Below are positions 1-20,009 of a DNA stretch of 64,000 nt, piece after piece. Source of the stretch: a virus (taxonomy: Duplodnaviria > Heunggongvirae > Uroviricota > Caudoviricetes); the IMG/VR virus record IMGVR_UViG_3300046820_002180, positions 31,821 through 95,820 of that record; one strand, written 5' to 3'. Within the stretch, counting starts at the first letter, position 1. Every line of letters starts with the position of its first letter. The position numbers were made by a program, and so were the translations under genes. The notes under the pieces were generated by a model. It had not been told where the DNA came from, did no database searches, and worked only from the letters and a program-made list of their open reading frames with translations.

Positions 1-1
1 T

Positions 2-139
2 AATGTTGAAATTGAAAGATTGAGAGAGGAGATTAGTAAACTAAAAGAAGAGAATAATAAAATGAACGAAGCGTTAAATAAATTTAACAAGGCAACGTTT
101 ATGAAAAATAGCGATTTGAATACACTTTATGGCGAATAA
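2..139 (+). CDS. Partial hypothetical protein (C-terminal coiled coil), truncated by window start
   Basis: Open frame NVEIERLREEISKLKEENNKMNEALNKFNKATFMKNSDLNTLYGE* ends at TAA 137-139 and overlaps the next start. Confidence 0.6.
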   Translation, partial: NVEIERLREEISKLKEENNKMNEALNKFNKATFMKNSDLNTLYGE

Positions 140-1370
140 GTTTAACATTGGATTTATTGGTTTAGGTAAATTAGGTTTACCCTGTGCATTAGCAATTGAT
201 AACAAAGGTCACCAAGTATGGGGATATGATATTGATAAAAATGTTGTTGAAATACTCGAAAAAAAGAAATTAACATACCTTGAGGAGGGTGCAGATGAAT
301 TATTAAAAACACATAACATTAACTTCGGTGGTATTAGTGAAGTCGTTAAAAATAGTGATATCATATTTGTACCAATTCAAACCCCACACGATTATAAATT
401 TGAAGGGTGTACAAGAATACCCGAAGAAAGAGCTGATTTTGATTACGAACCTTTAAAAAGAGGTATTGAATCACTATCAACCGAGATACGAAAACAATCT
501 AATGAAAAGATTGTGGTAATAATATCAACGGTTTTACCTGGTACAATCGAAAGAGAAATTTATCCAATCATTAAAGATAATTTCAACTTTATATTATGTT
601 ATAATCCATATTTTATTGCTATGGGTACCACCATTCAAGACTTCTTAAATCCTGAATTTATTTTGTTTGGTTCTGAAGATAAAAGAGCATCGAAATTACT
701 TAAGAATTTTTATGAAACTATACACGATAAACCTTTTTATCAGACATCTATTAAAAATGCGGAATTAATTAAAGTTTCATATAATACTTTTATTGGTATG
801 AAGATAGTCTTCACCAATACCATTATGGAAATATGTCACAAAACGGGAGCAAATGTGGATGAAGTGATGGGTGGATTGAAGTTGGCAAATAACAGATTAA
901 TTTCTACCAAATATTTAAATGGAGGAATGGGAGATGGAGGAGGATGTCACCCAAGAGACAATATTGCAATGAGTTGGTTGGCGAATAAATTAAATCTATC
1001 CCACAATTTTTTTGAAGACATTATGGAAGCAAGAGAAGAACAAACAGAATTCTTAATTGAATTATTAACACAACAACCAGGACCTTATACCATCTTGGGT
1101 AAAACATTTAAAGAAAATACGAATTTAATATTGGGTTCACCTTCGATGTTGTTAGCAAATATGTTAACAGAGCAAGGAATTAAATTTAATCATTACGACC
1201 CATTCGTTGATGAGGTTGAACCATATTTTGAAAAGGGTACCTACATAGTTACAGTTCCACACGAACAATTCAGAACCTTTGGTTTTCCTGATGGGTCAAT
1301 CGTTATTGATGTGTGGAGAGTAATGGAAATTAATAACCCTAATGTTACACACATTAAAGTAGGTAATTAA
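129..1370 (+). CDS. ugd: UDP-glucose/GDP-mannose dehydrogenase family protein
   Basis: Rossmann GFIGLGKLG, VPIQTP, AELIKVSYN, and catalytic Cys motif GDGGGCHPRD (cf. GYGGSCFPKD). Confidence 0.9.
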   Translation: MANKFNIGFIGLGKLGLPCALAIDNKGHQVWGYDIDKNVVEILEKKKLTYLEEGADELLKTHNINFGGISEVVKNSDIIFVPIQTPHDYKFEGCTRIPEERADFDYEPLKRGIESLSTEIRKQSNEKIVVIISTVLPGTIEREIYPIIKDNFNFILCYNPYFIAMGTTIQDFLNPEFILFGSEDKRASKLLKNFYETIHDKPFYQTSIKNAELIKVSYNTFIGMKIVFTNTIMEICHKTGANVDEVMGGLKLANNRLISTKYLNGGMGDGGGCHPRDNIAMSWLANKLNLSHNFFEDIMEAREEQTEFLIELLTQQPGPYTILGKTFKENTNLILGSPSMLLANMLTEQGIKFNHYDPFVDEVEPYFEKGTYIVTVPHEQFRTFGFPDGSIVIDVWRVMEINNPNVTHIKVGN

Positions 1371-1371
1371 T

Positions 1372-1401
1372 TTTGATTTATCCATTTTTTTAGTTATATT
1401 T
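1372..1401 (+). promoter_or_regulatory. Putative Bacteroidota-type sigma70 promoter (-33 TTTG / -7 TAnnTTT)
   Basis: TTTG 1372-1375, 19-nt spacer, TATATTT 1395-1401, upstream of ATG 1422. Confidence 0.5.
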
Positions 1402-1421
1402 TTATAACAAAGAAAATCATT

Positions 1422-1733
1422 ATGGATAAACTTATTTTATGGGCTTTCGCGGCATATGGAATGACCTCAATCTTAGTTTGGGGTTCAATATTTGAATCAA
1501 CAAGAGAATTCATTAAAAGAAAATCTAAATTTTTTGGAGACCTAATCAGTTGTACATTATGTACAAGCACTTGGGTAGGTTTCTTTATGTCAATTGTATT
1601 AGGTGGACTAATCGGACCTATTTTCGGAATAGATTGGTTTGTCGGGATTTTTTTTGACGGTATGTTTACCGCAGGTATTGTATGGGCAATTAACTCAATT
1701 ATCGAATTCTTCGAAGAGAGTAGATTAAAGTAA
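1422..1733 (+). CDS. Small membrane protein, DUF1360-like
   Basis: Three hydrophobic segments with a CTLCTSTWVG (CxxC..W) motif. Confidence 0.55.
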   Translation: MDKLILWAFAAYGMTSILVWGSIFESTREFIKRKSKFFGDLISCTLCTSTWVGFFMSIVLGGLIGPIFGIDWFVGIFFDGMFTAGIVWAINSIIEFFEESRLK

Positions 1734-1736
1734 TCT

Positions 1737-2696
1737 ATGAATTTAAAAAAAGTTGGTTATAGGGTTTTTGATTATTCGGTACCCAAGGAATTATATTACT
1801 ACGTAACTAAAGAATATTATTTACGAGAACCAAAACTATTTGAATCTTTAAAAATCAAAAGTGGTAACGATAAAAAGAATGCTACCTATGTTGAAGTTAT
1901 TAAAGGTGATAAAGATAGTTTCTTTGATTTAACACCAACCAGAAAAGAGGAGTGGGATAATGTTGTTGAGTACTTAAATGAAAAGTACGAATCACATATA
2001 AAACCACCGAAAGAAGATAAGGTTGGTGATGAAGACAAAAGAGTAAAGTTTTTTAAGAACTTAGAAAAAAACGCCAAATCAAATTCTATCTTAGGTAGAC
2101 TCCTACATTTTAATCCAATCAATGAAGAAGGTGTTAGTGAATTAATAACTTTTGATGAGATTAAAAAACATCCTGATTTCGGTAAAACCAATAAAGACGA
2201 TAGTTGTATCCCAAACAACGGTACAGGTTGGAACAGAACAGTTGAGAAGTATTTTAAATTTACATTAGTTAGAGATAAAGGGAAAACGGTAGCATTTAAA
2301 TTTGATGGATATAATTTCGACTATTCACATAAAAATCGATATATTCGTAAAGATATTAGAAAGGCGTTAGAACACGGTAGATGTTCTCATTGTGGTGTGA
2401 AGGGAAAGAAAATGGAGATAGACCACAAAAATGGTAGGTACAATGACGAGAATGTTTTGAGTTCTGACACACAAAACCTATCCGACTTTCAACCATTATG
2501 TGGTAATTGTAATAAATTAAAAAGAAGTGCTTGTAAAAAGTGCAAAGAGACAGGACTTAGGTATGATGCACAATTCTTAGGTTATCCGTTCTCACAATTG
2601 GAAGGTGACGCAGTTTATAACGATGAGTTAGGTTGTTCAGGATGTTACCTTTTTGATTGTATGGTTTGGAAATTCAATTGTGTAAAAAATAATTAA
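1737..2696 (+). CDS. HNH nuclease resembling NlaIII/IceA1-type restriction endonucleases, with an extra N-terminal ~110 aa
   Basis: NNGTGWNR, IRKDIR, CSHC, EIDHKNGRYND, QNLSDFQPL, KRSACKKCKETGLRYDAQFLGYP and GCSGCYLFD match the motif order I recall for NlaIII/IceA1. Confidence 0.75.
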   Translation: MNLKKVGYRVFDYSVPKELYYYVTKEYYLREPKLFESLKIKSGNDKKNATYVEVIKGDKDSFFDLTPTRKEEWDNVVEYLNEKYESHIKPPKEDKVGDEDKRVKFFKNLEKNAKSNSILGRLLHFNPINEEGVSELITFDEIKKHPDFGKTNKDDSCIPNNGTGWNRTVEKYFKFTLVRDKGKTVAFKFDGYNFDYSHKNRYIRKDIRKALEHGRCSHCGVKGKKMEIDHKNGRYNDENVLSSDTQNLSDFQPLCGNCNKLKRSACKKCKETGLRYDAQFLGYPFSQLEGDAVYNDELGCSGCYLFDCMVWKFNCVKNN

Positions 2697-2697
2697 T

Positions 2698-5034
2698 ATG
2701 GCAAATCCGTTTATTAAAGTAGAGTGGGAAGACACACCAGAAAATCTTACCCAAGAAAGAATCAAGAGAGTTAAAAGTTATTTCGAAAAGAAATACAACT
2801 CCACTAATGTTAAGATTGTAACAAAGATTGTTTCGAACGTTCTCCATACACAATTGAGGACACTCGAAGCAACAGATAGTATTTTGGACCATCAATATCA
2901 AAAGAATATTGTTAAAGAGTTCGTTACTGAGAATGACCTTAACGTTAAGTGGGATTTACTTAATAGGTTAGATGATAAGGTAAATGCTGAAGTAGATAAG
3001 TCAAATCAAAACAAAGTACGTTATAATAAGTGGTTCATTAAAAAAGTAGAGTTCTCTAACTTTTTATCTTTTGGTGAAGATAATGTAATTGAATTCGATA
3101 ACTTAGATGGAATCACAGTAATCGAATCAACACCGAGAAACTTTGGAGGTAAATCTACGGCAACTGTCGATTTATTAATGTTCTTATTTTTTAACACAAC
3201 AACTAAGACTAAAACTAATATTGAAGTATTCAATAAATTTAGTGACAAGGACGAAGTAAAAGTAAAAGGTTATGTAACTATCGATGGTGAAAATTATATA
3301 ATTTCAAGAAGTGTAACAAGAAAGAAAACTAAAGCGGGTGAGTACACAGTTAAGAGTGATTTGGAATTCTTTAAAGTAAGTGAAGATGGAACGGTATCGA
3401 ATTTAGCTGGTGAACAAAGAAGAGAAACAGAAACATTTATATCCTCGGCAATTGGAAGTCAGGAAGATTTCCTATCAACAATATTAACGACAGGATATAA
3501 CTTAGAAGAATTAATCGAATCTAAACCAACTGCTAGAGGTCAAATCCTTACAAAGTTTTTAGGGTTGGAGAGTTTAAAACAGAAAGAAGATATCTGTAAA
3601 GAAATGTACAGTGATTGGTCTAAGAAATTAGTATCAAACACATACAACGTAAAAGATTTGGAAGATACGAATGTTACATTACAGGAAAGTATTTCTAATT
3701 CAGAGAATGAAATTGTAAGGTTAACAACTTTTTTAGAGGAAACAGAAAAGTCACTGAAAAAATTAGAAGAGAAACGTGACGAAAAATTAAGTTCTAAGAA
3801 TAACGACGTTGACCAAGAACTAATAAGAACGAATCCTACTTTACTAAGAGGTGAAATCGACGCATTAGTTCTTAAAAGAAATCAAAGTCAATCAGGTGCC
3901 GATGGTGTAGACGTAAAAGAACCGTCAACATATTATCACGAAGACCAACATAAGGAACTTAAGAGTGAAATGTCCAAACTTCAAGGAGTTGAATTTGCTC
4001 TCAAGTATGAGAAATCAGAAAAAGAAAAGTTAATTAAACAATTAACTGAAGGAACCATTTGTCCAACCTGTAAAAGAGCATTGGATGAAGTTGACCATAC
4101 TGACGAGATTGAAGAAATTAAAAAACAAATTGAACAAATTGATAAAGACCTCGAAACCAATCAAACTGAGTTTACAACACTGAAAGAACAATCAGATGGT
4201 TTAGAATCTCTTAAAAATGAATTTGACAATTACGAAAGAAATAAACTTCGTAAAGCGAGATTTGAATTGGAAGTTGAACAAAGACAACTTGAAATTGATT
4301 CAAAACAAGCGAAGTTGAATAACTACGATAACAACAAAAAGAAGTTAGACGAGAATCAAAGAATTGATATTGAGGTTACAGGATTAAGAACTAAAATTGA
4401 AACAGCAAATGCAGACATTAGAGTTACCAATCAATCAATTGAAAGACATAATGGAAACATCACATTATCTACCGAGAAGATTGGGGTTAACAACGAACTA
4501 ATCAAAAAGATTAAAAGTGAAGAGGAATTAATCTATGTGTTTAAAACTTACTTAACTATATTTGGTAAGAACGGAATTTCAAAAGTGATTATTAAAAATA
4601 TGATTCCATTATTGAATCAAGAACTTTATAGATTACTATCTGATAGTTGTTACTTCACTTTAGAATTAAACATCAATGATAAGAATGAATTGGAGTTCTT
4701 AATGATTGATAATGAAACAAGAGTGGTTAAACCATTATCAAGTGGTTCAGGATATGAAAGAACAATATCGTCTTTGGCCATTAGAAGTGTATTGACCAAA
4801 ATATCATCATTACCTAAACCTAATATTGTAGTAATGGACGAGGTGTTTGGTAAGATAGCGGATGACAACCTCGAGATGGTAGGGGAATTCTTCAAGAAAA
4901 TCAAAAATTATTTTGAACATATATTAGTTATTTCTCATAACCCACTGATAAGGAACTGGTCTGACAATATCATTATGGTTAAAAAAGATGACAATATATC
5001 CTCTGTTGAATTTATCACCACTAAAATTTCTTAA
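2698..5034 (+). CDS. sbcC: SbcC/Rad50/gp46-like SMC ATPase (recombination nuclease subunit)
   Basis: FLSFG, Walker A NFGGKST, long coiled coil, zinc hook CPTC, signature LSSGSGYE, Walker B IVVMDE, and ISH. Confidence 0.88.
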   Translation: MANPFIKVEWEDTPENLTQERIKRVKSYFEKKYNSTNVKIVTKIVSNVLHTQLRTLEATDSILDHQYQKNIVKEFVTENDLNVKWDLLNRLDDKVNAEVDKSNQNKVRYNKWFIKKVEFSNFLSFGEDNVIEFDNLDGITVIESTPRNFGGKSTATVDLLMFLFFNTTTKTKTNIEVFNKFSDKDEVKVKGYVTIDGENYIISRSVTRKKTKAGEYTVKSDLEFFKVSEDGTVSNLAGEQRRETETFISSAIGSQEDFLSTILTTGYNLEELIESKPTARGQILTKFLGLESLKQKEDICKEMYSDWSKKLVSNTYNVKDLEDTNVTLQESISNSENEIVRLTTFLEETEKSLKKLEEKRDEKLSSKNNDVDQELIRTNPTLLRGEIDALVLKRNQSQSGADGVDVKEPSTYYHEDQHKELKSEMSKLQGVEFALKYEKSEKEKLIKQLTEGTICPTCKRALDEVDHTDEIEEIKKQIEQIDKDLETNQTEFTTLKEQSDGLESLKNEFDNYERNKLRKARFELEVEQRQLEIDSKQAKLNNYDNNKKKLDENQRIDIEVTGLRTKIETANADIRVTNQSIERHNGNITLSTEKIGVNNELIKKIKSEEELIYVFKTYLTIFGKNGISKVIIKNMIPLLNQELYRLLSDSCYFTLELNINDKNELEFLMIDNETRVVKPLSSGSGYERTISSLAIRSVLTKISSLPKPNIVVMDEVFGKIADDNLEMVGEFFKKIKNYFEHILVISHNPLIRNWSDNIIMVKKDDNISSVEFITTKIS

Positions 5035-5072
5035 TTTCGTTTAAATTTCTTAATTTTATAAAAAAACTTATT

Positions 5073-5750
5073 ATGACTCCGAAGGAATACAACAGCTTTG
5101 GTCTATACGCAAAAGACCGTGGGATTAGCTCACTAACATTACACAATTTCAATAAAGGAATTGAAAACAGTTTAACTCCTTATATTTTGGAGGAGAGACA
5201 AATGAACGTAACCGCTATGGATGTGTTCTCTCGTTTAATGATGGAACGTATCATTTGGGTAGCTGGAGAGGTAAATGACCATATGTCAACCGTTGTACAA
5301 GCTCAATTAATGTTCTTGGACAGTATCGACCACAATGACATCACAATGCACATTGACAGTCCTGGTGGGTCTGTAAAGTCAGGTTTATCAATGGTAAACG
5401 TTATGGATTATATTAAGTCAGATATTAGAACTATTTGTACGGGTATGGCTGCGTCTATGGGTTCAGTTCTATTAGGTGCTGGTACTAAAGGTAAACGTAG
5501 TTCATTGGAAGATTCTGAGATTATGTTACACCAATCATCAGGAGGTGCTGTTGGGAACATCCAAGACGCTGAAATCACTATGGTTTGGTGGAAAAGAAAA
5601 AATGATAGATTATTTGAACTCTTGGGTCAATATTGTGGTAAAACCACAGAACAGGTTAAAACCGATGCCACAAGGGATTTATGGTTATCGGCTCAAGAAG
5701 CACTAGATTACGGACTAATCGATGAGGTAGTCAAAAAGAAACAAAAGTAA
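5073..5750 (+). CDS. clpP: ATP-dependent Clp protease proteolytic subunit
   Basis: DVFSRLMMERII, IDSPGGSV, GMAASMG (Ser nucleophile), IMLHQ (His), RDLWLSAQEALDYGLID. Confidence 0.95.
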   Translation: MTPKEYNSFGLYAKDRGISSLTLHNFNKGIENSLTPYILEERQMNVTAMDVFSRLMMERIIWVAGEVNDHMSTVVQAQLMFLDSIDHNDITMHIDSPGGSVKSGLSMVNVMDYIKSDIRTICTGMAASMGSVLLGAGTKGKRSSLEDSEIMLHQSSGGAVGNIQDAEITMVWWKRKNDRLFELLGQYCGKTTEQVKTDATRDLWLSAQEALDYGLIDEVVKKKQK

Positions 5751-5755
5751 TGTAA

Positions 5756-5780
5756 AAGGGGACTAATAGTCCCCTTCTTC
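5756..5780 (+). terminator. Putative intrinsic terminator after clpP
   Basis: 9-bp stem AAGGGGACT-aat-AGTCCCCTT with a weak pyrimidine tail. Confidence 0.55.
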
Positions 5781-5781
5781 A

Positions 5782-5789
5782 TATTTATA
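5782..5789 (+). promoter_or_regulatory. TATTTATA motif (putative phage late promoter)
   Basis: Lies directly after a terminator and 14 nt before ATG 5803; the motif recurs before many genes. Confidence 0.5.
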
Positions 5790-5802
5790 GTAAAAGAATA
5801 AT

Positions 5803-6147
5803 ATGAAGATTAATAAGACCGACATTCTATTGATTTTAATCGTAATTCTGGCGGGTTATAGTATCTTTCAAATGAAAGGGATTAAAACTGACGTTGCAGG
5901 GTATAACGCTAAAATCGATTCAATCCAAAATGAGATTGATTCCGTTCAGTTAGAAAATGTAAAAATATCTGAACAAATTGTTACCATCGATAAGGAAATC
6001 GACGTGGTTGACAAGAACATAAACAATGTTACAAAAAACATAACAATCATTAAAAAACAAACCGATGAAAAAATTGATTCTGTTAACAATTATAACTTTA
6101 GTGACCTTGAAAAGTTTTTCACAGACCGTTACAAAGACAAATATTGA
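5803..6147 (+). CDS. Membrane-anchored coiled-coil protein (i-spanin-like topology)
   Basis: N-terminal TM ILLILIVILAGYSIF followed by heptad-rich helix; overlaps the next gene by 83 nt. Confidence 0.6.
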   Translation: MKINKTDILLILIVILAGYSIFQMKGIKTDVAGYNAKIDSIQNEIDSVQLENVKISEQIVTIDKEIDVVDKNINNVTKNITIIKKQTDEKIDSVNNYNFSDLEKFFTDRYKDKY

Positions 6148-6481
6148 TACTTTGGTACCTTTAAAAGTACCCGTGGCTAAACTTGTAATTAAAGACCTAA
6201 TCAAAGGTGACGGTGCTGCTATTGAAATAAACGAACTCAACAAGGTTATCGGACTTAAAGATGAACAAATCAATTTGTTTAAACAAAAAGATACTCTTAA
6301 AGACCAAAAGATTTCTAATCTTGAATTAATAATAACCAAAAAAGACCAACAATTCGATTTGGAACGTGCGAAATCTGAAAGTCTATTAAAAGAACTTAAA
6401 GGTCAAAGAAGAAAGACATTTCTTTTTAAAGTCGGTTCATTTGTTGGTGTAATAGCAACATCGATGCTTTTATTAAAGTAA
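6065..6481 (+). CDS. Secreted coiled-coil protein with C-terminal hydrophobic anchor
   Basis: Signal peptide MKKLILLTIITLVTLKSFS|Q and C-terminal KVGSFVGVIATSMLLLK. Confidence 0.6.
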   Translation: MKKLILLTIITLVTLKSFSQTVTKTNIDTLVPLKVPVAKLVIKDLIKGDGAAIEINELNKVIGLKDEQINLFKQKDTLKDQKISNLELIITKKDQQFDLERAKSESLLKELKGQRRKTFLFKVGSFVGVIATSMLLLK

Positions 6482-6482
6482 A

Positions 6483-7124
6483 ATGAAGAAACATCTTAAC
6501 GCCAAGAATTTTATAATTGTTATTCTAATAATTTTATTATTCTTGGCATTTTTTAATCCCGGCGGACATCTACCCAACAGAACAGTTTTAAAATTAGACT
6601 CAATACCCTATGCGGTTTCTGATACAGTTACCATTGATAGTTTAGTTGAAGTTGAGGTAGAGATAGAAGTTCCTGTTGAGATTGAAGTCGAGAAAAGAAT
6701 TGAAGTACCTGTTTTAACACCGGTAGACACAAATGAAATATTGAAAGTATATTTTGCAAAAATAGAACACAAAGAAGTTTTAACATTACCAAATAACGTA
6801 GGTACAGTAACCATAACCGATACCATCTCAAAAAATAGTATTGTAAACCGAAAATTCATTAGTGATATAAAGCAAATGATTGTTAAGGATACCATTTATA
6901 CTAAGGAACCTAAGAAAGGTCAAATGTTTTTTGGATTTAATGGTGGTTTAAATAAGAGTAATGTGGTATCACACATTGGGACAGGGTTAATGTACAAAAC
7001 AAAAGAAGATAAGATATTCCACGTTGGGTTAGGAGTTGCTAATCGACTTTTAGATGGTACAAGTGGTCAATTCACACCTTACGTAGACGGTGGAGTTTAT
7101 TGGAAAATTAAATTAAAAAAGTAA
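6483..7124 (+). CDS. Membrane-anchored envelope protein with EV-repeat stalk and beta-rich C-terminus
   Basis: N-terminal TM, VEVEVEIEVPVEIEVEKRIEVP low-complexity segment, and beta-strand end YVDGGVYWKIKLKK. Confidence 0.55.
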   Translation: MKKHLNAKNFIIVILIILLFLAFFNPGGHLPNRTVLKLDSIPYAVSDTVTIDSLVEVEVEIEVPVEIEVEKRIEVPVLTPVDTNEILKVYFAKIEHKEVLTLPNNVGTVTITDTISKNSIVNRKFISDIKQMIVKDTIYTKEPKKGQMFFGFNGGLNKSNVVSHIGTGLMYKTKEDKIFHVGLGVANRLLDGTSGQFTPYVDGGVYWKIKLKK

Positions 7125-7142
7125 AACTTTTATTTGTTTATA

Positions 7143-7598
7143 ATGAATACCTATATTTTATTTGTATATGGTAATTTTGAGGACCGCGAAGATATTGAGT
7201 TCTTCTGTTCCGACGTATTCCCAAGTGAATCAATCCTTTCAGTAAAATATATTATAGAAAATAATCAAAATATTATTATTATTTTTGATTCATATAAAGA
7301 AAAATTAGAATTAGCTAAAGAATTATATTCCTTTTTAACTCCAGAATTTGTTAAGTTTTATTTTCTTTTTGAGAGAGAAAAATTGGTAACTGCACACATA
7401 CCTGAGAGTATGAAGGATTTTATCTTTAAACCCGTGGAAAACGAGGAAATTAACATTATGAAGGTGGATTTCTATAGACCCAAAAAAGACGAAACCCCCT
7501 CCTTTACATTAGACGATATATTGGACAAAATTGAAAAAATGGGTGTATCCTCATTAACACCCGAGGAAAAAAACTTTCTAGATAATTTTGAAAATTAA
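7143..7598 (+). CDS. Hypothetical protein with C-terminal DUF6576-like helix pair
   Basis: C-terminus LDDILDKIEKMGVSSLTPEEKNFLD resembles the DUF6576 tail of Bacteroidota proteins. ATG 7143 preferred to TTG 7134. Confidence 0.5.
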   Translation: MNTYILFVYGNFEDREDIEFFCSDVFPSESILSVKYIIENNQNIIIIFDSYKEKLELAKELYSFLTPEFVKFYFLFEREKLVTAHIPESMKDFIFKPVENEEINIMKVDFYRPKKDETPSFTLDDILDKIEKMGVSSLTPEEKNFLDNFEN

Positions 7599-7616
7599 AA
7601 TATTTTAGTTATCTTT
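7587..7616 (+). promoter_or_regulatory. Putative Bacteroidota-type promoter upstream of the phage sigma factor
   Basis: TTTG 7587-7590, 19-nt spacer, TATCTTT 7610-7616. Confidence 0.5.
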
Positions 7617-7637
7617 AGAGTATCTAAACTTACTCTA

Positions 7638-8447
7638 ATGGCCAAAAAACACATCATCATTAACACCGAGGAAATCCAACAGTATCTTAAAGATTTAAAA
7701 AAGATACCAGTAATTACACACCAAAGACAAGACGAAATTTTTGAACAACTAATAAAGAAAGAACTTCCCAAAGAAGAACTTGAGGCTATGAAAGAAGAGT
7801 TAGTTGTTGGTAATTTACGATTCGTCGTTTCAGTTTCTAAATCGTATCAAAATCAAGGATTAGATTTATTAGACATTATTTCTGAAGGAAATATTGGACT
7901 ATTGAAAGCAATTGAAAGATTTGACCCCACATCAGGAGTTAAGTTTATTTCGTATGCCGTATGGTGGGTAAAACAATCCATTATGGCGTCCTTAAATGAG
8001 AATGCAAGAACTATTAGAATTCCTTCTAACCTTGTTCAGGAAGCACAAAAAGCTAAGAAAGAATATAATGACGAAGAAAGTTATTATATCAAATATACAG
8101 ATGAACCAACAAGTAGTAGTCTACCATATTGTGTTGGGTTATATGACGAAATTAATGATGAGGGTGACCAATTAATTGATGTAATTAAAAATCCGAATCA
8201 AGATAACCCCGAAGACATTCTTAACACTAAAGAAGAAATTAGAAAAAGGGTTGAAAGAGTATTGAGTGTTTTAGATGATAGAGAGAAAGTAATTATTGAA
8301 AAATATTTTGGTTTAAACGGTATTGAATCCAATTTAGAAGACCTTGGAGAAGAGTTTAATTGTACTAAAGAAAGAATTAGACAACTTAAAGACAAGGCCA
8401 TAAAGAAACTCAGAAACGAGAGTTATTCGTTAATAAACTATTTATAA
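7638..8447 (+). CDS. RNA polymerase sigma70-family factor (RpoD/RpoS-like, no region 1.1)
   Basis: Region 2 NLRFVVSVSKSYQNQGLDLLDIISEGNIGL and KFISYAVWWVKQSI; region 4 LEDLGEEFNCTKERIRQLKDKAIKKLR. Confidence 0.92.
   Translation: MAKKHIIINTEEIQQYLKDLKKIPVITHQRQDEIFEQLIKKELPKEELEAMKEELVVGNLRFVVSVSKSYQNQGLDLLDIISEGNIGLLKAIERFDPTSGVKFISYAVWWVKQSIMASLNENARTIRIPSNLVQEAQKAKKEYNDEESYYIKYTDEPTSSSLPYCVGLYDEINDEGDQLIDVIKNPNQDNPEDILNTKEEIRKRVERVLSVLDDREKVIIEKYFGLNGIESNLEDLGEEFNCTKERIRQLKDKAIKKLRNESYSLINYL
8439..8446 (+). promoter_or_regulatory. TATTTATA motif
   Basis: Overlaps the end of the sigma gene, 11 nt before ATG 8458. Confidence 0.45.
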
Positions 8448-8457
8448 ATTATAAAAA

Positions 8458-8739
8458 ATGAAAAAGTTCGTAGAAAATAATTTCACTGTTATTGTGTTAG
8501 TAATTGCATTATTGACATTTTTTAAAGGTTGTAGTGATAGTCGTGAATTGTCAAAAACAAGAAAAGACATCCAATCAATTAAAGATTCGACATACACAAA
8601 ACAGGAATTGAATGTAGAATTAAAAATTATGGGTTTAGAGGCTGAAAAGAGAATGATTCAAGCCACAGATAGAAAAATGTTAGATGTACAAAGACAAACT
8701 CAAATTGAGGAAGAAATAAAAAAACTTAGACAACGATAA
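8458..8739 (+). CDS. Small membrane or lipoprotein-like coiled-coil protein
   Basis: Hydrophobic N-terminus ending FFKGC (lipobox-like), then a charged helix. Confidence 0.55.
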   Translation: MKKFVENNFTVIVLVIALLTFFKGCSDSRELSKTRKDIQSIKDSTYTKQELNVELKIMGLEAEKRMIQATDRKMLDVQRQTQIEEEIKKLRQR

Positions 8740-10164
8740 ATGAAACATTGGATTAATAAAAATTATAAGACATTAATTATTACTGCGTTTTTAATACCAA
8801 TTATTACCGTGGCGATTGTTTCAATCTCCCACGTAACTAAATGGTACGGAATTTCAAATCCGGTAACTTGGTCGGTTTACTTATCAATTGGTATTGAAAT
8901 TGCTGCATTATCAGCATTAGCTGCTATTTCGGCTAATATGGGAAAGAAGGTTTATTTTCCTTTCTTAATCGTTACCATAATCCAATTTATCGGTAACATA
9001 TTTTTTGCATACTCATACATCGACATCAACAGTCAACCATTTAAAGATTGGGTTGGTTTAGTTTCACCACTTGTGGAATTTATGGGAGTAGAACCAACTG
9101 ATTTTGTTGGACACAAAAGATTTTTAGCATTTTTTGCTGGTGGTATGTTACCAATCATATCTTTATCATTCTTACATATGTTGGTTAAATTCACCGAAGA
9201 AGATAGACTTAAAGAAGTTAAAGAAGATGTTAAAGATACCATCGACCCAAGTGAAATTGCAAGAGTACATTTATCAGATGCAGATTTAAAAATTTTGGAG
9301 GAGGCGTTATTAAAACCACAAGAACCAAATGAAAAATTAAAAGAAGCCGCTAAAAGATATAGTGAAAAAGTTAGAGAAAACCACACACACATCCAAGATT
9401 TCGATGTTGAGGTCAAAGTTGAAAATCCGTCAATATTTCCTAAAGAGGTTGAATATGATGAGGAATATACTCGTCCCGTTTACACTAATGAATTTAAAGA
9501 ACAACAAAAGGATATTTTGGAGGAAATGATGAAGAATGACCAAGAGTTAGGTTTATATGATGAACCATTCGATAACCCAATGATTAAAGAACCTGTTGTT
9601 AGTGATGATTTTACAATTGGACCTGACGGGGCATTTGAAATGACTGAAGAATTACCTGATGATAATATTTCAGATTGGGATGTGACCCTAATGGACGGAT
9701 TGGAAGACGAAGAAATTTTCCAAGAAGAACCAACAGAAGAAGATATTCAGGAAAATTTTTCCACTATAACCCCTGAAACGGAGAATATTTTCCAACAAGA
9801 TGAATATATTCCATCATTATCTGATGAAGAAATTATGGAAATGAATCAAAATGAGTACGAGAGACTTTTAGATAGTGATGAGTTTTTAACAGACGCAATA
9901 AATGAGTTCAATCAACAATCAATTGAAGATGAGGTTGAGGAATCATTTGACATTTCGGTAAATGTGGTAAGTGATGAACCTGTTTATCAATCTGATAATA
10001 AAGAAATTGACGACATAAATAAGATAATGGAAGACGCAATGTCTTTAATTAATGTCCCTCCTTTAATTGAAGAGGTACAAGTTTCCAACGATTGGATTGA
10101 ACCAACTCCCGAAATCCCTTCTCAAGATGAAGAGGAGTTAAAAAAAAAAGTTCAGGAGAGTTAG
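8740..10164 (+). CDS. Multi-pass membrane protein with long acidic C-terminal tail; probable -1 frameshift extension to 10406
   Basis: About four N-terminal TM helices, then a Glu/Asp-rich region; ends LKKKVQES* right after an A10 run. Confidence 0.7.
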   Translation: MKHWINKNYKTLIITAFLIPIITVAIVSISHVTKWYGISNPVTWSVYLSIGIEIAALSALAAISANMGKKVYFPFLIVTIIQFIGNIFFAYSYIDINSQPFKDWVGLVSPLVEFMGVEPTDFVGHKRFLAFFAGGMLPIISLSFLHMLVKFTEEDRLKEVKEDVKDTIDPSEIARVHLSDADLKILEEALLKPQEPNEKLKEAAKRYSEKVRENHTHIQDFDVEVKVENPSIFPKEVEYDEEYTRPVYTNEFKEQQKDILEEMMKNDQELGLYDEPFDNPMIKEPVVSDDFTIGPDGAFEMTEELPDDNISDWDVTLMDGLEDEEIFQEEPTEEDIQENFSTITPETENIFQQDEYIPSLSDEEIMEMNQNEYERLLDSDEFLTDAINEFNQQSIEDEVEESFDISVNVVSDEPVYQSDNKEIDDINKIMEDAMSLINVPPLIEEVQVSNDWIEPTPEIPSQDEEELKKKVQES

Positions 10165-10406
10165 AAGAAGAGTCGGAAACCACATTTTTATCGACACCAT
10201 CCCCTACGACCTCGGAGGAATTTGATGAACTCTATTTAGAGTCGGATGAGACCAACCCTCTCCAAATAATATATGATTTAGATAACGATAGAGTAATTGT
10301 CCCAACATCAGACGATGATTCAATTATTGAAGAACAGACCCTAAATCCTGCTAGAAAAACATTCAGAAGAAATGTCGGAAATTCAAGACGTAGAAATTCT
10401 CGATAA
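10138..10406 (+). other. A10 slippery site and -1 frame extension (85 aa)
   Basis: TTA AAA AAA AAA G at 10138-10150. The -1 frame from 10149 reads SSGELEEESETTFLSTPSPTTSEEFDELYLE...RRNVGNSRRRNSR* with TAA at 10404-10406. Confidence 0.6.
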
Positions 10407-10989
10407 GAGTAAGTTAAACATTGTAAGAAAACGTAGTAAAAAAACACAAATTCTATTATACGACACCAAAAGAAGAGTGGACAATTTCATTTTGAAATTA
10501 AAACACAGGAAAAATGGTAAGTATGAAGACATCCCACACTTCATTATAACCAAAATGGGGGTAGTTTATCAGTTGTTTGATACAAAGTATAGCTCAAACA
10601 CTTTTAACGACTCTAACGTCGATAAGAAACAGATTAAGATAGCAATGGAGAATCTCGGATGGTTGAACAAAAACACCATCACGGGATTTCTTAATAATTG
10701 GATTGGTGACCCATACAGAACCGACCCTCATATAAGAAATTGGAGAAACCATTATTTTTGGGATAAGTACACCGAAGAACAAAAATCGGCACTTGTTAAC
10801 CTATGTTCAGTACTATGTGACGAACATAACATCCCCTACCATACCGTACCATCGCAGGGTTATATCGAAAACTTAACAAAATTCAAAGGAATTGTATGTA
10901 AATCCAACTTTCTGAATATTTATACAGATATAAACCCATCATTCGATTTTAGAATATTTTATAGCGATGCAAAAGAAACCAACAAATAG
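10372..10989 (+). CDS. Amidase_2-like (N-acetylmuramoyl-L-alanine amidase fold) protein with degenerate Zn ligands
   Basis: PHFIITKMGVVYQ, IAMENLG, YTEEQKSAL and DINPSFDF; the usual HHT reads YDT and the usual GH reads CK. Confidence 0.65.
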   Translation: MSEIQDVEILDKSKLNIVRKRSKKTQILLYDTKRRVDNFILKLKHRKNGKYEDIPHFIITKMGVVYQLFDTKYSSNTFNDSNVDKKQIKIAMENLGWLNKNTITGFLNNWIGDPYRTDPHIRNWRNHYFWDKYTEEQKSALVNLCSVLCDEHNIPYHTVPSQGYIENLTKFKGIVCKSNFLNIYTDINPSFDFRIFYSDAKETNK

Positions 10990-11506
10990 TTACGATGAGA
11001 TAAAAGGTATGTTGAATACTATGAGAAAATTCAACAACCCAACCTCAAATAGAAACCTTAGAGAACAAGCCGAATTAGGTACTAACCCTACCCCAACCAA
11101 TCCGCAACCACAACAAGGTGGGGGTGATGAGAAGAAGGACTTCACAATTGTGAATGGTGTCGAAGTACGTTTCAATTCTACCGATACCCAAGATTTACAA
11201 ATGAAAGATGATGAGAAGACCAAAGTTTCTGCTCTTATCGATGCGTTTCGTAATGAGGTTTCAGAAATTGCTGAACTTGGTCAAATGATGGTTTATCCTG
11301 ATAGTGTAAAATTAGAAGGTGTTATTGGTAATTTCAATATAAATTTCACATTGTCAGCCGGTGACGATAATGGTGTATACGTTTCAAATGCTTCATTATT
11401 GAAGTTAAGTGATGAGGTTATGGAGATTTTAAATAAACTCAAGAGGTTTGAAATGAAATTCACCGATGAAATGAATAACTTAATTTTAACAAGAAGACAA
11501 AACTAA
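10967..11506 (+). CDS. Hypothetical protein (possible virion/head protein)
   Basis: 179-aa ORF preceded by TATTTATA 10917-10924; contains an LRE|Q motif and a Pro/Gln linker. Confidence 0.6.
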   Translation: MQKKPTNSYDEIKGMLNTMRKFNNPTSNRNLREQAELGTNPTPTNPQPQQGGGDEKKDFTIVNGVEVRFNSTDTQDLQMKDDEKTKVSALIDAFRNEVSEIAELGQMMVYPDSVKLEGVIGNFNINFTLSAGDDNGVYVSNASLLKLSDEVMEILNKLKRFEMKFTDEMNNLILTRRQN

Positions 11507-11507
11507 T

Positions 11508-11747
11508 ATGCCACTTACAGCAGCAGACAAGGCCGAAGTAGAAAGAATTGCGAGAAAAGAGATGAAAGACTTTCTTGATACGACTCAGGCTCACAATATA
11601 GTTATCAAAGTCATCCAAAAAGAATTGGGTACCAAAAAAATTGACGATAAAATCGTCGACCTATCAACTAAGGTTGTGGTTGAATTATTCAAGACTCTAT
11701 GGCAAAGAAAGTCTTTTTGGGAATCATCATTAAAAAATGTTAGATAA
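11508..11747 (+). CDS. Hypothetical protein
   Basis: 79-aa ORF in a tight operon. Confidence 0.6.
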   Translation: MPLTAADKAEVERIARKEMKDFLDTTQAHNIVIKVIQKELGTKKIDDKIVDLSTKVVVELFKTLWQRKSFWESSLKNVR

Positions 11748-12807
11748 ATTAAAATATAGAAAACCCAACTTCAACCGAGAATGGTTAGAAGCTAACAGAT
11801 ATCCGGAATTTCAAGATATTGGGAAATCAGGATGGTTAGAACTTGCACCAAATGGAAGTGTTGTAAGATATTCAAACATTAAGGATGTTCTAGGGAATGT
11901 TAATTTAGATTTTGATTCATTAGAAAAAGATAAAAAACAGAGATTTATTGAGGATTATAAAACAGGTGTAATTGAAGTACCTATTGCCGTTAAATTTAAT
12001 GATTTTGAATATGATTTATTGGGTGGTAACACCAGATTAGCGGGATTAATTAGAATAGGTCACGACCCTAAGATTTGGGTAGTCCAAGCACCCGGTTGGG
12101 ATTATAATGATACGGAAGAGTTAAGTGAAGATTTGAGAAGATGGTTTAAAGAGAAATGGGTAGATGTTAGTAAAAAGGTAGACGGTAAACACCCACCTTG
12201 TGGTAGAAAAGATGCTGACGGTAAATCATATCCAAAATGTAGACCATCGAAAAAGGTTTCTAAAGACACCCCTAAAGTTGCGTCTTCATATGATAAAGAT
12301 GAAAAGAAAGCAATGACCCAACAAAAAAGAAGAGCTGAGAAAGAAGAACCTAAAGTTGGAAAGGGTAACAAACCTACAATGACTCACTTTGATGAAATGA
12401 CGGGAGCAGCATCAGCAGGAGCATTTTCAGCACCAATGTCTTTTACTAAAAAAGACGTTCAAGAAGCTATGGACGCAGGTATCTCAGCAGCGGCGGCTTT
12501 CGATGTACCATTGTTTGGTGCAACAACCAAAGGTGGTAGAAAGGACCCACTTAAGATTGATGGCCCTGAAAGTATTGGTAAGAGTAGAGCGGTTAAGGAT
12601 AAATCATTCCCGAAGTTCGGAGGACCTGGTGGAATTTTTATAAAAATTAAGGATAAGTGTAAAAAGTTTCCATATTGTAATCAAGGAGACATAAATGCAA
12701 TTGAAATACTGAGAGAAACTATAGAAGATACCGCAAAAAAACACGGATTACCTATCGGTGAGGTTGAAAAAATTGTATTAAAAGGAATTAAAGATATATT
12801 TATTTAG
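11737..12807 (+). CDS. Mosaic protein: ParB/Srx-like N-terminal part plus short basic modules (putative head-associated protein)
   Basis: PIAV...YDLLGGNTRLAG is ParB-like; module DLRRWFKEKWVD...PCGR...YPKCRP; modules separated by xxE motifs. Confidence 0.55.
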   Translation: MLDKLKYRKPNFNREWLEANRYPEFQDIGKSGWLELAPNGSVVRYSNIKDVLGNVNLDFDSLEKDKKQRFIEDYKTGVIEVPIAVKFNDFEYDLLGGNTRLAGLIRIGHDPKIWVVQAPGWDYNDTEELSEDLRRWFKEKWVDVSKKVDGKHPPCGRKDADGKSYPKCRPSKKVSKDTPKVASSYDKDEKKAMTQQKRRAEKEEPKVGKGNKPTMTHFDEMTGAASAGAFSAPMSFTKKDVQEAMDAGISAAAAFDVPLFGATTKGGRKDPLKIDGPESIGKSRAVKDKSFPKFGGPGGIFIKIKDKCKKFPYCNQGDINAIEILRETIEDTAKKHGLPIGEVEKIVLKGIKDIFI

Positions 12808-12808
12808 T

Positions 12809-14365
12809 ATGAAAACAACAGAAATTAGAAATATCATTGATGAGGTTTTAAACGAAGAAGTTAAAAACGCCATCACAAACGAAGGAGGAACAACTAAAAG
12901 AGTAAAATACCACGTTACTTGTGAAGGTGAACCATTAGCAACATTCGATACCCTCGATGAAGCTAAGGACTATTGTGAAAAGAATAAAGATGGTGAGCTA
13001 AAAGGTAAAAAGAAATTACTTATTGATAAAAAAACTTACGGGTCATATCAAGAGATGATAGACCATCTTGATGAAATTGCACAATCATTAGAAGAAAAAG
13101 AAAGTTCTGAAGAATCTCTTGATGAAGAAATTGCAATTGAAGAGGATTGTTGGGATGGATATAAACAAGTTGGTGGTAAAATGAAGAACGGTAAAATGGT
13201 TCCTAATTGTGTTCCGACTAATGAGGCAAGTAGTCCTGCACAACAGGCGGCAATTGCTATTAATATGAAAGAGAAAGGAATTGAACCTAAGAACGAATCC
13301 ACAGAAGAAATAAATGAAGGTGAAAACCAACCAACAAACCCATCATTATGGTCAAGAGCAAAATCTTTAGCCAAATCAAAATTTGATGTGTATCCAAGTG
13401 CTTACGCTAACGGATGGGCTGCTAAATGGTATAAATCAAAAGGCGGAGGATGGAAGAAGAAAAAGAAAACCAAGAACGAATCTACAGAATTAAAAGAAAC
13501 AGAAAATATGGAAAATCAACAACCAATGGAAGGTAATGGATACATCAAAGCAATGTTAGATGCAAAAGAAAAGGGAGAAGACACATTTGATTTTGATGGA
13601 GAAACTCACGACGTTAAAGAAGTGTATAGTCAATTAGAGGAAGAAGAAGGTATGTGTGAAGGAAGTGGATGTTCGGGCGAAATAAATGAAGGTTCAGAAA
13701 TATGTGAACAATGTGGAAATACATTAATGGAAGATGGTAGTTGTAATGAATGTTCAAAGCAAATGAATGAATCAAAAAAGAAAAAAGTAAGATTAACTGA
13801 AAAAGAATTAACCGACTTAATTGGTAAATTAGTTTTAGAATCAATACCAGGTTTAGAAGCGTTGAAAAAGTCACACGGACAAGCATCGGGACAAGATTTA
13901 AAAGATAGCACAAAAAAGATTGCCGATTATTTAAAGTTTTCAGGTAACACAAATCCTGAATTCCCTAATCAAATGGGTGTTGAAGAAGATAAAGAAGCGT
14001 ACAGAAACACTAGTGATGAAGAAGAATTTGTTGACACTTACAGAGGTAAGGGTTTACAAGATTTAGATTACGATAACAAACCTTCTAAAGAGTTTATCGA
14101 TAGATTGAGAATGGCGTTGGAAGGTGATTCTAAAATGGGTAATGGTCAAAAAGACACAGCAAACACCACACCAAGTAAAGTTGGTGAGAAAATTTTTAAA
14201 TCAATAGATAAAGAAAAGAAAACAAGAAAGGCAGAACCTATGTATAAAAAGGACCCTGCACCGACTACTGAAGTAAACGAATCTAAAAAAATGTCAAAAA
14301 GTTTAGTATCTGAAGAAATTCAGAGAATGAAAAATATGACAAACTACAATAAGAAAACTCAGTAA
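12809..14365 (+). CDS. Mosaic Glu-punctuated protein (putative internal head protein)
   Basis: Modules DCWDGYKQVGGKMKNGKMVPNCVP, PTNPSLWSRAKSLAKSKFDVYPSAYANGWAAKWYKSKGGGW and CEQC...CNEC, separated by NE|S, NE|G or EE|D. Confidence 0.6.
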   Translation: MKTTEIRNIIDEVLNEEVKNAITNEGGTTKRVKYHVTCEGEPLATFDTLDEAKDYCEKNKDGELKGKKKLLIDKKTYGSYQEMIDHLDEIAQSLEEKESSEESLDEEIAIEEDCWDGYKQVGGKMKNGKMVPNCVPTNEASSPAQQAAIAINMKEKGIEPKNESTEEINEGENQPTNPSLWSRAKSLAKSKFDVYPSAYANGWAAKWYKSKGGGWKKKKKTKNESTELKETENMENQQPMEGNGYIKAMLDAKEKGEDTFDFDGETHDVKEVYSQLEEEEGMCEGSGCSGEINEGSEICEQCGNTLMEDGSCNECSKQMNESKKKKVRLTEKELTDLIGKLVLESIPGLEALKKSHGQASGQDLKDSTKKIADYLKFSGNTNPEFPNQMGVEEDKEAYRNTSDEEEFVDTYRGKGLQDLDYDNKPSKEFIDRLRMALEGDSKMGNGQKDTANTTPSKVGEKIFKSIDKEKKTRKAEPMYKKDPAPTTEVNESKKMSKSLVSEEIQRMKNMTNYNKKTQ

Positions 14366-14415
14366 TTTACTTTTTTTTCTATTCTTTTATCTTTATATTT
14401 TAATGTAGTAAAGAT

Positions 14416-15275: not shown

Positions 15276-15281
15276 AATTTA

Positions 15282-20008: not shown

Positions 20009-20009
20009 T

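Follow-up and report, generated by a model that had tools for sequence, protein, structure and literature searches.

We found that an uncultured jumbo phage whose sequence contains no CATG encodes an endonuclease of the ICEA (NlaIII/IceA1) family with no methylase gene beside it, and that this protein is probably a functional, CATG-specific Type IIP restriction enzyme that works without a methylase and cuts non-self DNA. The gene lies in a 64,000-nucleotide stretch of DNA (the window), which covers positions 31,821 to 95,820 of IMG/VR record IMGVR_UViG_3300046820_002180, a 159,820-bp sequence referred to below as G000. The features of the window are listed in Table 1. Protein and DNA searches of a GenBank phage collection with this phage gave 0 matches.

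Table 1. Features of the 64,000-nucleotide window (positions are those of the window)
Feature	Position	Strand	Basis or remark
Sequence free of CATG and GATC	1..64000	.	rest of the 159,820-bp record likewise
DUF1360-like small membrane protein gene	1422..1733	+	Pfam DUF1360; conserved left border of the slot
Solitary ICEA/NlaIII-family HNH restriction endonuclease gene	1737..2696	+	319 aa; PF05315 match
ICEA N-terminal extension, aa 1-95 (tentative)	1737..2021	+	alignment and AlphaFold2 model
ICEA middle domain, aa 97-197 (tentative)	2025..2327	+	weakly winged-helix-like
HNH (His-Me finger) catalytic domain, two Cys4 zinc sites, aa 198-319	2328..2693	+	Pfam ICEA
SbcC/Rad50/gp46-like ATPase gene	2698..5034	+	PHROG 77; conserved right border of the slot
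D12-class N6-adenine DNA methyltransferase gene, intact DPPY motif	16922..17758	+	PF02086, 75 bits

R.NlaIII of Neisseria lactamica and IceA1/R.HpyI of Helicobacter pylori belong to PF05315, His-Me finger group 27 (PMC5714182), and Xu et al. 2002, cited in PMC2816704, showed that the iceA1 enzyme acts at CATG. The phage protein matched the PF05315 (ICEA; NlaIII/IceA1) profile at 104.8 bits (E 6.4e-30; curated cut-off 24 bits), with residues 160-315 aligned to positions 36-201 of the 218 in the profile, and a six-frame PF05315 search of the genome recovered it at 105.6 bits. The ICEA protein of N. lactamica NS19 (232 aa), which scores 390 bits on the same profile, aligned with residues 122-317 of the phage protein, across its entire catalytic body, at 39% identity (E 2e-35, 207 alignment columns); as in the NlaIII system, the N. 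lactamica gene precedes one for a D12 methylase, of 334 aa. An earlier note on this DNA, made by reading the letters, had proposed an NlaIII/IceA1-like nuclease on the strength of its motifs; all of these were found in the open reading frame (NNGTGWNR, IRKDI, EIDHKNG, QNLSDFQPL, KRSACKKCK, RYDAQFLGYP and GCSGCYLFD), and the protein proved to be a full member of the family.

The catalytic DH...N and eight cysteines of ICEA were conserved in an alignment of 32 sequences, in which D229, H230, N259, C216, C266, C269, C300 and C303 were invariant, and all present in the phage protein, and C255 was nearly invariant. The phage enzyme shares its family, HNH core and zinc-binding cysteines with R.NlaIII and IceA1. 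The generic HNH Pfam profile matched weakly (16.8 bits, below the HNH cut-off); PHROG 144 (HNH endonuclease) matched the HNH domain, which resembled the HNH domains of McrA, Cap5 and GVE2 at VIA-align Z scores of 4.4-4.7. Unlike NlaIII, the phage protein begins with about 95-120 additional residues, an extension that the alignment placed in long phage forms only, the forms of 190-245 aa being without it. Residues 1-95 were folded in the AlphaFold2 model (block pLDDT about 69-95), and a family search with them recognised none. The middle domain, in which the invariant N161 and R167 of the 32-sequence alignment sit, resembled winged helices of the ArsR/BigR type (VIA-align Z 4.5-4.8), which is no more than suggestive; it is probably the DNA-reading part. 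A PDB sequence search with ICEA returned nothing relevant. Because Foldseek found nothing in the PDB that resembled the model at E <= 0.001, and no VIA-align Z score reached 5, the assignment of the N-terminal and middle parts is tentative.

To the eye of the earlier note the window held no CATG, against about 190 expected with independent bases. Computation bore out both figures: the count was zero, the independent-base expectation came to 190.7, and dinucleotide-preserving shuffles gave 239 +/- 14. In the whole record CATG was likewise absent, against 512 sites expected under a second-order Markov model. The His codons that had been singled out as CAC were found exactly at 12058, 19185 and 48006, and the rule drawn from them, that His before a G-starting codon is always CAC, held genome-wide (187 CAC, 0 CAT); in other contexts 66% of His codons were CAT. 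The same avoidance was seen for NNY codons before ATG, which ended in T 381 times and in C 0 times, and for NCA before TGN (0 of 187). Synonymous choice alone, in all three codon phases, therefore removes CATG, with amino-acid sequences preserved.

This pattern bears on whether the loss could be an artefact in which systematic errors of base calling, assembly or masking erased both CATG and GATC where they were methylated. The two words are classic m6A methylation motifs, and some long-read platforms make systematic miscalls at methylated motifs. However, because nothing but the choice among synonymous codons removes CATG, its loss is not an artefact: no single miscall could yield amino-acid-preserving avoidance in three phases. 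The genes are intact, and assemblies made independently, from other samples and other sources (contigs of IMG/VR, ENA and Logan), showed the same pattern, which makes such errors an extremely improbable explanation. Compared with its relatives, solitary ICEA showed dN/dS of 0.03-0.08 at dS of 1.0-1.8, that is, strong purifying selection with saturated synonymous sites; for the gene in the window, dN/dS against close relatives was 0.03-0.06. Because the gene has stayed under such selection while synonymous sites became saturated, active maintenance applies to it and to the CATG-free state alike, and the absence of the word is total.

As the earlier note had stated, no methylase adjoins the ICEA gene, which is flanked by the DUF1360 gene and the SbcC-like gene (Table 1); in N. 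lactamica, by contrast, a D12 methylase gene is the neighbor. The SbcC-like gene begins 1 nt past the ICEA stop codon and was assigned by PHROG 77 (E 3.8e-51), its SbcC_Walker_B Pfam match being weak. A Metallophos gene of the SbcD/Mre11 type was found at 30744-31535 of G000, a short way upstream of the window. The ICEA gene, unlike that of NlaIII, sits in a lytic-type jumbo phage and inside an SbcCD-like module, into which it is translationally packed (SbcD...SbcC, T4 gp47/gp46-like).

A D12-class methyltransferase gene that had been missed before, 15 kb downstream of ICEA, was the only methylase gene found in the record. We considered it as an unlinked partner of ICEA, and this was not supported: copies 67-98% identical to it occur in 19 of 26 related records irrespective of their ICEA, CATG or GATC status, and it shares only 25% identity over 128 aa with the N. 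lactamica NlaIII-type methylase, so that it is a conserved gene of the lineage, remote to that methylase. The methylases that partner ICEA in phage relatives are of the PF01555 (beta) class and not D12 as in NlaIII, and no PF01555 gene was present in the 159,820 bp of the record. Because these represent only about 48% of the genome, the half not covered may carry further genes that matter here, among them a methylase gene unlinked to ICEA.

The earlier note had raised the question of whether relatives without the gene avoid CATG as well. Comparison of solitary, paired and absent ICEA gave an answer mostly in favor of its reading. All nine records with solitary ICEA contained zero CATG (observed/expected: G000 0/512, G001 0/200, G002 0/208, G018 0/222, L110 0/53, L112 0/51, L115 0/43, L116 0/39 and L117 0/31). 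The five loci in which ICEA adjoins a PF01555 methylase all retained the word, at 2-36 sites per 21 kb (L108 16/55, L114 2/59, L118 6/40, L119 9/49 and L120 36/62). Among 56 distinct ICEA-less relatives, 54 retained CATG, and the median observed/expected ratio of the 56 was 0.60. CATG was the sole word missing from 9/9 solitary carriers and present in 5/5 methylase-linked carriers. The answer is not uniform, however: G029 is CATG-free (0/141) with ICEA absent both from the slot and from its 55-kb record (estimated 17% complete), and in G036, also without ICEA, CATG is strongly depleted (18/251). The absence of CATG from every solitary carrier points to CATG as the likely specificity of the phage enzyme.

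In the backbone tree the solitary carriers belong to three different clades, and the sisters without ICEA have retained CATG. Genome-wide, G018 is no nearer to G000 than is the CATG-bearing G011, and ICEA was the only gene common to the G000 clade and G018 yet missing from four large CATG-bearing genomes. Phylogenetically independent contrasts numbered three, of which two were concordant and one was a tie; with this number a sign test cannot reach significance, and formal significance is not claimed. The ICEA tree grouped the solitary forms in a single clade (83/93 support) embedded in the methylase-linked forms, and solitary ICEA appears to derive from an ICEA-methylase pair of the kind still found in relatives.

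The slot between the DUF1360 and SbcC-like genes is hypervariable and sometimes empty in related loci, and ICEA is sporadic there; the DUF1360 gene adjoins it in nearly all of 80 such loci. Many free-standing HNH genes of phages encode homing endonucleases, and a single clade of solitary ICEA spread over three backbone clades suggests transfer between phages. We weighed whether ICEA could be a selfish, mobile HNH endonuclease of the homing type that moves via the slot, with a specificity unrelated to CATG and a CATG-free genome by coincidence. Yet by its best match the protein is a full-length member of a restriction-enzyme family, PF05315, and not of the HNH families of homing endonucleases; relatives have methylases beside it, as expected of a standard restriction-modification system; and the division between solitary carriers with zero CATG and methylase-linked carriers with CATG is not expected by chance. 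We regard this origin as very unlikely.

A methylase-free CATG enzyme remains the preferred reading, and on it the phage, about 330 kb in size judging from complete relatives, would carry ICEA without a cognate methyltransferase. In favor of this reading, the contents of the slot in relatives include full restriction-modification pairs, with an EcoRI-like nuclease and a D12 methylase, and Eco57I/TaqI-type methylases. The enzyme would be tolerated through the lack of CATG in the phage genome, self being marked by the absence of a site and not by methylation. Since the phage has zero CATG, the enzyme should be able to cut the DNA of the host or of rivals and not that of the phage. In the infected cell its most likely targets would be unmethylated CATG sites of the host chromosome, of phages and plasmids that share the cell, or of both, where it would cut both strands; the ends that ICEA leaves could then be processed by the SbcCD-like exonuclease. 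We infer this cooperation with the SbcC-like protein from gene order. What points to an action on host DNA early in infection is likewise the place of the gene in the SbcD...SbcC module.

The earlier note had read the locus in this way, with self-protection by sequence purging in place of methylation, and its three supports (the NlaIII/IceA1 family, the lack of an adjacent methylase and zero CATG) stood. As an account of the purging in this genome it was supported in part. GATC, which the note had missed, is equally absent from the whole record (0 against 473 expected), and because several solitary-ICEA relatives retain GATC, its loss is beyond what ICEA can explain. A search of the phage for GATC nucleases found neither the DpnII nor the MutH/Sau3AI family, and no recognisable candidate was present among the genes common to the GATC-free G043, G011 and G000 and absent in the GATC-bearing G045 and G019. 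Those genes were fibre-like (LamG, Gly-rich), SmpB, cyclophilin and unknowns; of two genes specific to the G000 clade, one was Hint-like and one was without a recognised family. Relatives show further full purges, of AGCT (G003 and G009), ACGT (G036, 0/110) and GATC (G011 and G043), and no phage nuclease matching them was identified. As no phage nuclease was found that explains the GATC loss, ICEA is not behind every elimination of sites in this phage.

These purges, together with CATG-free G029, mean that host restriction may have started the purge of CATG. The CATG and GATC restriction systems of hosts would then have come first, and ICEA would have been acquired later or be the remnant of a captured pair, persisting only because the genome was already CATG-free and perhaps serving against rival phages. 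Phages are documented to evade host restriction by site avoidance (PMC6286503), and ICEA-family genes are common in the genomes of Bacteroidales and other Bacteroidota. As in those phages, short palindromes have been eliminated here genome-wide via synonymous changes; the known cases, however, concern a host nuclease, whereas here the matching gene is in the phage and tracks the purge among relatives. Host restriction would leave unexplained why a solitary gene was retained at such low dN/dS over dS above 1, and a CATG-methylated host would offer no target in its own DNA. G029 is the sister of ICEA-bearing G018 (support 96 in the backbone tree) and is seen through 17% of its genome; its CATG-free state can be the relic of a recent gene loss. 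Those methylase-linked relatives in which CATG has fallen to 0.03-0.3 of the expected number resemble intermediate stages of a purge that the phage enzyme itself drives. We consider a host-first order of events unlikely, although either force, host restriction or the nuclease of the phage, may have driven the purge.

Several known systems share parts of this arrangement. PacI of Pseudomonas alcaligenes is, according to PMC3488263, a solitary HNH enzyme whose site is missing from the genome of its host. It resembles phage ICEA as an HNH restriction enzyme without a methylase, for which self-protection is attributed to the absence of the site in the carrier. The PacI site (TTAATTAA) has 8 bp, however, in contrast to 4 bp in the phage. 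In a GC-rich bacterium an 8-bp site of this kind is very rarely expected, and there was therefore hardly anything, if anything at all, to purge. Here the carrier is a virus, and CATG, of which 160 kb should contain about 500 copies and a full genome about 1000, has been removed, with selection preventing its return.

Chlorovirus PBCV-1 has CviAII (CATG) and CviAI (GATC) systems, which are thought to degrade host DNA early (PMC7248222, PMC7019647). Its virus-encoded 4-bp enzymes address the same two words that are missing from the phage. PBCV-1, however, keeps its sites and methylates them by adjacent methylases, and infects a eukaryotic alga; the phage has neither sites nor a linked methylase, and a GATC nuclease was not found in it. 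T4 breaks down host DNA with endonucleases II and IV (denA and denB) and then with the gp46/47 exonuclease. The proposed likeness is that a phage endonuclease would cut non-self DNA, a co-encoded SbcCD-like nuclease would degrade the fragments and the phage's own DNA would be exempt. In T4, self is hydroxymethylcytosine in place of cytosine; here it would be the absence of a tetranucleotide.

A restriction enzyme normally needs a partner methylase to be harmless to its carrier, and here the recoding of a whole genome would stand in for that partner. A genome of several hundred kilobases recoded without a 4-bp word would be a different route to self/non-self discrimination in a virus. Both the intermediates, with enzyme, methylase and few sites, and the controls, with sites and no enzyme, are still extant in nature, which offers a testable path by which a toxic nuclease could become a methylase-free weapon. 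Unexplained solitary restriction genes have been counted in phages (PMC4176335), and a CATG-free phage with a lone ICEA offers a reason for them. Missing palindromes in phage genomes need not always indicate host restriction. Phage ICEA is also a candidate CATG cutter with an extra domain.

A broader reading takes the slot beside the SbcCD-like genes as an armoury of site-specific nucleases against hosts and rival phages, with phage-borne nucleases driving the palindrome purges. Nuclease-methylase pairs that lost their own sites stepwise would become methylase-free nucleases, as yet unrecognised phage nucleases would lie behind the GATC, AGCT and ACGT purges of relatives, and relatives armed with ICEA would, at co-infection, exert the pressure behind the shortage of CATG across the family (observed/expected about 0.6). 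We hold this generalization to be doubtful. Missing words may nevertheless be a guide to the specificity of phage nucleases of unknown kind, and the slot is a place to seek new restriction-modification systems. A 315-aa slot protein of L007 and L016, in an AGCT-free sister clade, was examined as a solitary AGCT enzyme and rejected, as it has a RecJ-like DHH fold and 46%-identical homologues in genomes with normal AGCT counts.

No CATG occurs in the 64-kb window, as the earlier note had claimed, against 239 ± 14 expected from dinucleotide-preserving shuffles; the note's expectation for independent bases was reproduced at 190.7. The whole IMG/VR record (G000; linear, 159,820 bp, ∼48% complete by CheckV, complete relatives being about 335 kb) likewise contained no CATG, where a second-order Markov model predicts 512, and no GATC (473 expected), the latter absence having been overlooked in that note. 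Codon usage was analyzed in 162 genes from a crude longest-ORF call covering 92% of the record. Histidine ahead of a codon starting with G was encoded by CAC 187 times and never by CAT, the three examples quoted previously being located correctly, and 66% of histidine codons in other contexts were CAT. Two-fold pyrimidine-ending codons ahead of ATG ended in T 381 times and never in C, NCA ahead of TGN was seen in 0 of 187 cases (such codons ending in A at 52% elsewhere), and aspartate ahead of C was GAC 227 times and never GAT. CATG has therefore been removed by synonymous choice in all three phases with the proteins unchanged, which rules out base-calling error as the source of the missing word. 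The CATG-free pattern was found again in independent assemblies (IMG/VR, ENA, and Logan). Between G000 and the related record G002, the ICEA genes (PF05315, NlaIII/IceA1 family) have diverged by roughly one substitution at each synonymous site (dS 1.03), yet both records have zero CATG and zero GATC, so selection is still acting to keep these words out.

The ICEA product of the window matched PF05315 at 104.8 bits (curated cut-off 24; residues 160–315) and a generic HNH profile weakly in the Pfam search. All of the motifs previously listed are present, and the proposed family membership is borne out by this score and by 39% identity to the ICEA protein of Neisseria lactamica NS19 (232 aa; E 2e-35, residues 122–317 aligned), so that on sequence grounds the protein is a clear PF05315 member. 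The N. lactamica protein itself scored 390 bits, and its gene is followed by one for a 334-aa D12 methylase, as in the NlaIII system. Residues invariant in a 32-sequence ICEA alignment (Asp229, His230, Asn259, and Cys216, 266, 269, 300, and 303) are all kept in the window protein. A Foldseek search with its AlphaFold2 model (mean pLDDT 82.6) found no solved relative; in VIA-align, residues 97–197 of the model weakly resembled winged-helix proteins and residues 197–319 the HNH domains of McrA, Cap5, and GVE2 (Z 4.4–4.8 for all matches). An N-terminal extension, the first 95–120 residues, occurs only in the long phage forms (317–327 aa). The solitary gene, meaning ICEA without an adjacent methylase, is under strongly purifying selection (dN/dS 0.03–0.08). 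G000 thus carries an NlaIII-family gene with its catalytic residues intact and no linked methylase, in a genome kept free of the family's site; gene and site avoidance alike are conserved.

The neighbors of the gene confirmed that no methylase lies beside it: it starts 3 nt past the stop codon of a DUF1360-like gene and ends 1 nt ahead of an SbcC/Rad50/gp46-like gene (PHROG 77, E 3.8e-51), and a gene for an SbcD/Mre11-like phosphoesterase lies just upstream of the window and is followed by ClpP. Without a linked methylase, the system lacks what defines Type II restriction-modification. We recovered 80 related virus loci with the SbcC-like protein (61–97% identity), in which the DUF1360-to-SbcC interval ranged from 11 bp to 2.6 kb. 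This slot is empty in some loci, holds one common 170–240-aa gene in 37, and in others holds complete restriction-modification pairs or candidates for such pairs (see table); therefore, ICEA sits in the group's hot spot for restriction-type genes. Upstream of the window, G000 encodes a free-standing 167-aa Hint-like protein (weak Hom_end_hint and Hint matches) adjoined by a 228-aa protein, both confined to the clade of G000, G001, and G002.

CATG content, as observed/expected under a second-order Markov model, was then compared with ICEA and methylase state among relatives (see table); the short loci (∼20 kb) have 30–75 expected sites, ample for telling zero from normal and too few for fine ratios. 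The split was strict: CATG was gone with methylase-less ICEA, and tolerated but depleted with a methylase. Such a split is expected if ICEA is active and cuts CATG, and it argues for a 4-bp specificity and against a longer word containing CATG. Relatives without ICEA had been proposed as a test of whether CATG avoidance follows the gene. Across 56 such distinct loci (L007–L084), CATG is moderately under-represented (median 0.60); 54 keep it well above zero (0.41–0.83), and the two low outliers, L054 (record G029) at 0 and L064 (G036) at 0.07, do not fit. Searched in six frames with PF05315, 46 whole related records yielded the gene in G001, G002, and G018 only, and ICEA is the sole gene common to the G000 clade and G018 and missing from four large CATG-bearing genomes. 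Several solitary carriers keep GATC (21 sites in G018, for example), and ICEA is therefore not the cause of the missing GATC. The 21-kb L108 locus has 16 CATG sites, two of which fall within its own ICEA gene.

Features of the window and of related records (G) and locus stretches (L), with CATG counts
Feature	Position or record	Strand	CATG observed/expected	Remark
ICEA-family HNH endonuclease gene	window 1737–2696	+		319 aa; PF05315 match
D12-class adenine methyltransferase	window 16922–17758	+		intact DPPY motif
EcoRI-like nuclease + D12 methylase pair in slot	L026:8207–9998
396-aa protein + two PF01555 methylases in slot	L021:7415–9329			restriction-modification pair or candidate
Eco57I/TaqI-type methylases + small proteins in slot	L035:1533–3533			restriction-modification pair or candidate
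Eco57I/TaqI-type methylases + small proteins in slot	L083:7606–9998			restriction-modification pair or candidate
Weakly RmuC-like 231-aa protein + 370-aa protein in slot	L028:8208–10005			restriction-modification candidate
Solitary ICEA	G000		0/512
Solitary ICEA	G001		0/200
Solitary ICEA	G002		0/208
Solitary ICEA	G018		0/222	ICEA just 41% identical
Solitary ICEA	L110		0/53
Solitary ICEA	L112		0/51
Solitary ICEA	L115		0/43
Solitary ICEA	L116		0/39
Solitary ICEA	L117		0/31	44% GC
ICEA + adjacent PF01555 methylase	L108		16/55
ICEA + adjacent PF01555 methylase	L114		2/59
ICEA + adjacent PF01555 methylase	L118		6/40	short-form pair
ICEA + adjacent PF01555 methylase	L119		9/49	short-form pair
ICEA + adjacent PF01555 methylase	L120		36/62	short-form pair
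CATG sites within the L108 ICEA gene	L108:10151 and L108:10807
Hint-like protein	L180:1620–2120 (G000 19620–20120)
SmpB/cyclophilin loci	L121:1100–1525 and L122:18120–18548 (record G043)

On the SbcC tree, solitary carriers form three separate clades, and the ICEA-less sisters of two of them have CATG levels normal for the family; G018 is no nearer to G000 than is the CATG-bearing G011 (about 24 shared genes). Three independent contrasts were available, two concordant and one a tie; we claim no formal significance from them, the weight lying in the effect size. The tie is between G018 and its sister G029; the 17% of the G029 genome covered contains neither CATG nor ICEA, and G029 may represent a recent loss of the gene. 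Monophyly of the long phage forms is well supported in the ICEA tree (100/99), where a moderately supported clade (83/93) contains all solitary forms, with methylase-linked long forms branching below; a methylase accompanies each short form whose context is known. These patterns suggest that an ICEA-methylase pair gave rise to the solitary state by losing its methylase, L108 (ratio 0.29) and L114 (0.03) resembling steps along the way.

Purging in this group extends to other words. GATC is absent from the related records G043 (0/975 in 311 kb) and G011 (0/590 in 203 kb), from L047, L053, L055, and L063, and from the stretches read of L117 (12 kb) and of L118 and L119 (21 kb); its median ratio is 0.27 in the 56 ICEA-less loci, GTAC, TGCA, and TCGA being near 1. 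AGCT is missing from G003 (L007; 0/87 in 60 kb) and G009 (L016; 0/68 in 55 kb), which form the sister clade of the G000 phage on the SbcC tree and keep CATG and GATC, and ACGT is missing from G036 (0/110 in 78 kb; CATG 18/251). Near-total purges were also seen in L061 and L062 (GTAC 3/40 in L061) and in L023 (TCGA 1/25). Within one phage family, the 4-bp palindrome that has been eliminated differs from lineage to lineage. The 315-aa slot protein of the AGCT-free clade was rejected as a restriction enzyme, its confident fold (pLDDT 89.9) being RecJ-like DHH (Foldseek match to Pyrococcus furiosus RecJ, E 5.5e-4), so it does not explain the AGCT purge. In the ∼48% complete G000 record, no DpnII- or MutH-family gene or other candidate nuclease was found for GATC. 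The total purges of GATC, AGCT, and ACGT thus make 4-bp palindrome purging a habit of the group, for most words most simply read as a way around restriction by the host (PMC6286503). The CATG purge, too, may therefore have begun under host restriction, leaving a genome in which a CATG enzyme could be tolerated without its methylase. This rival account and the favored one, of a phage-borne weapon, differ in the order of events and the likely target; they agree on what the ICEA gene now is and why the phage tolerates it.

In the favored reading, with ICEA as a weapon, the enzyme would be expressed along with the SbcCD-like genes and would cut unmethylated CATG in other DNA in the cell (host chromosome, co-infecting phages, or plasmids), after which the SbcCD-like nuclease might resect the cut ends, by analogy with endonucleases II and IV of T4 acting with gp46/47. 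PacI is likewise a solitary enzyme with self spared by site absence; it differs in having an 8-bp site, for which little purging would be needed, where the ICEA phage avoids a 4-bp word. This 8-bp cutter is one bacterial precedent for self-protection via a missing site (PMC3488263). The chlorovirus enzymes CviAII (CATG) and CviAI (GATC), thought to degrade host DNA (PMC7248222, PMC7019647), are analogues of the proposed attack on non-self DNA, and phage surveys have recorded a small number of solitary restriction genes but not accounted for them (PMC4176335). G000 joins three known things, phage site avoidance, virus-encoded restriction enzymes, and a solitary enzyme guarded by site absence, a combination we did not find in the literature searched.

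The D12 methylase in the window, overlooked in the earlier note, is a conserved lineage gene: of 26 related records, 19 carry it at 67–98% identity regardless of CATG or GATC content, including genomes without GATC and/or CATG. It has only remote likeness to the N. lactamica methylase. Its presence is puzzling in a genome without GATC and CATG, both classic D12 targets. LamG and Gly-rich fiber-like genes are common to the GATC-free G000, G011, and G043 and missing from the GATC-bearing G045 and G019, and may reflect a shared host type. The related jumbo phage G043 also encodes a prolyl isomerase of the cyclophilin type (PF00160, E 5e-42) and an SmpB homologue (PF01668, E 1.2e-40); G011 has both, and G045 and G019 have neither.
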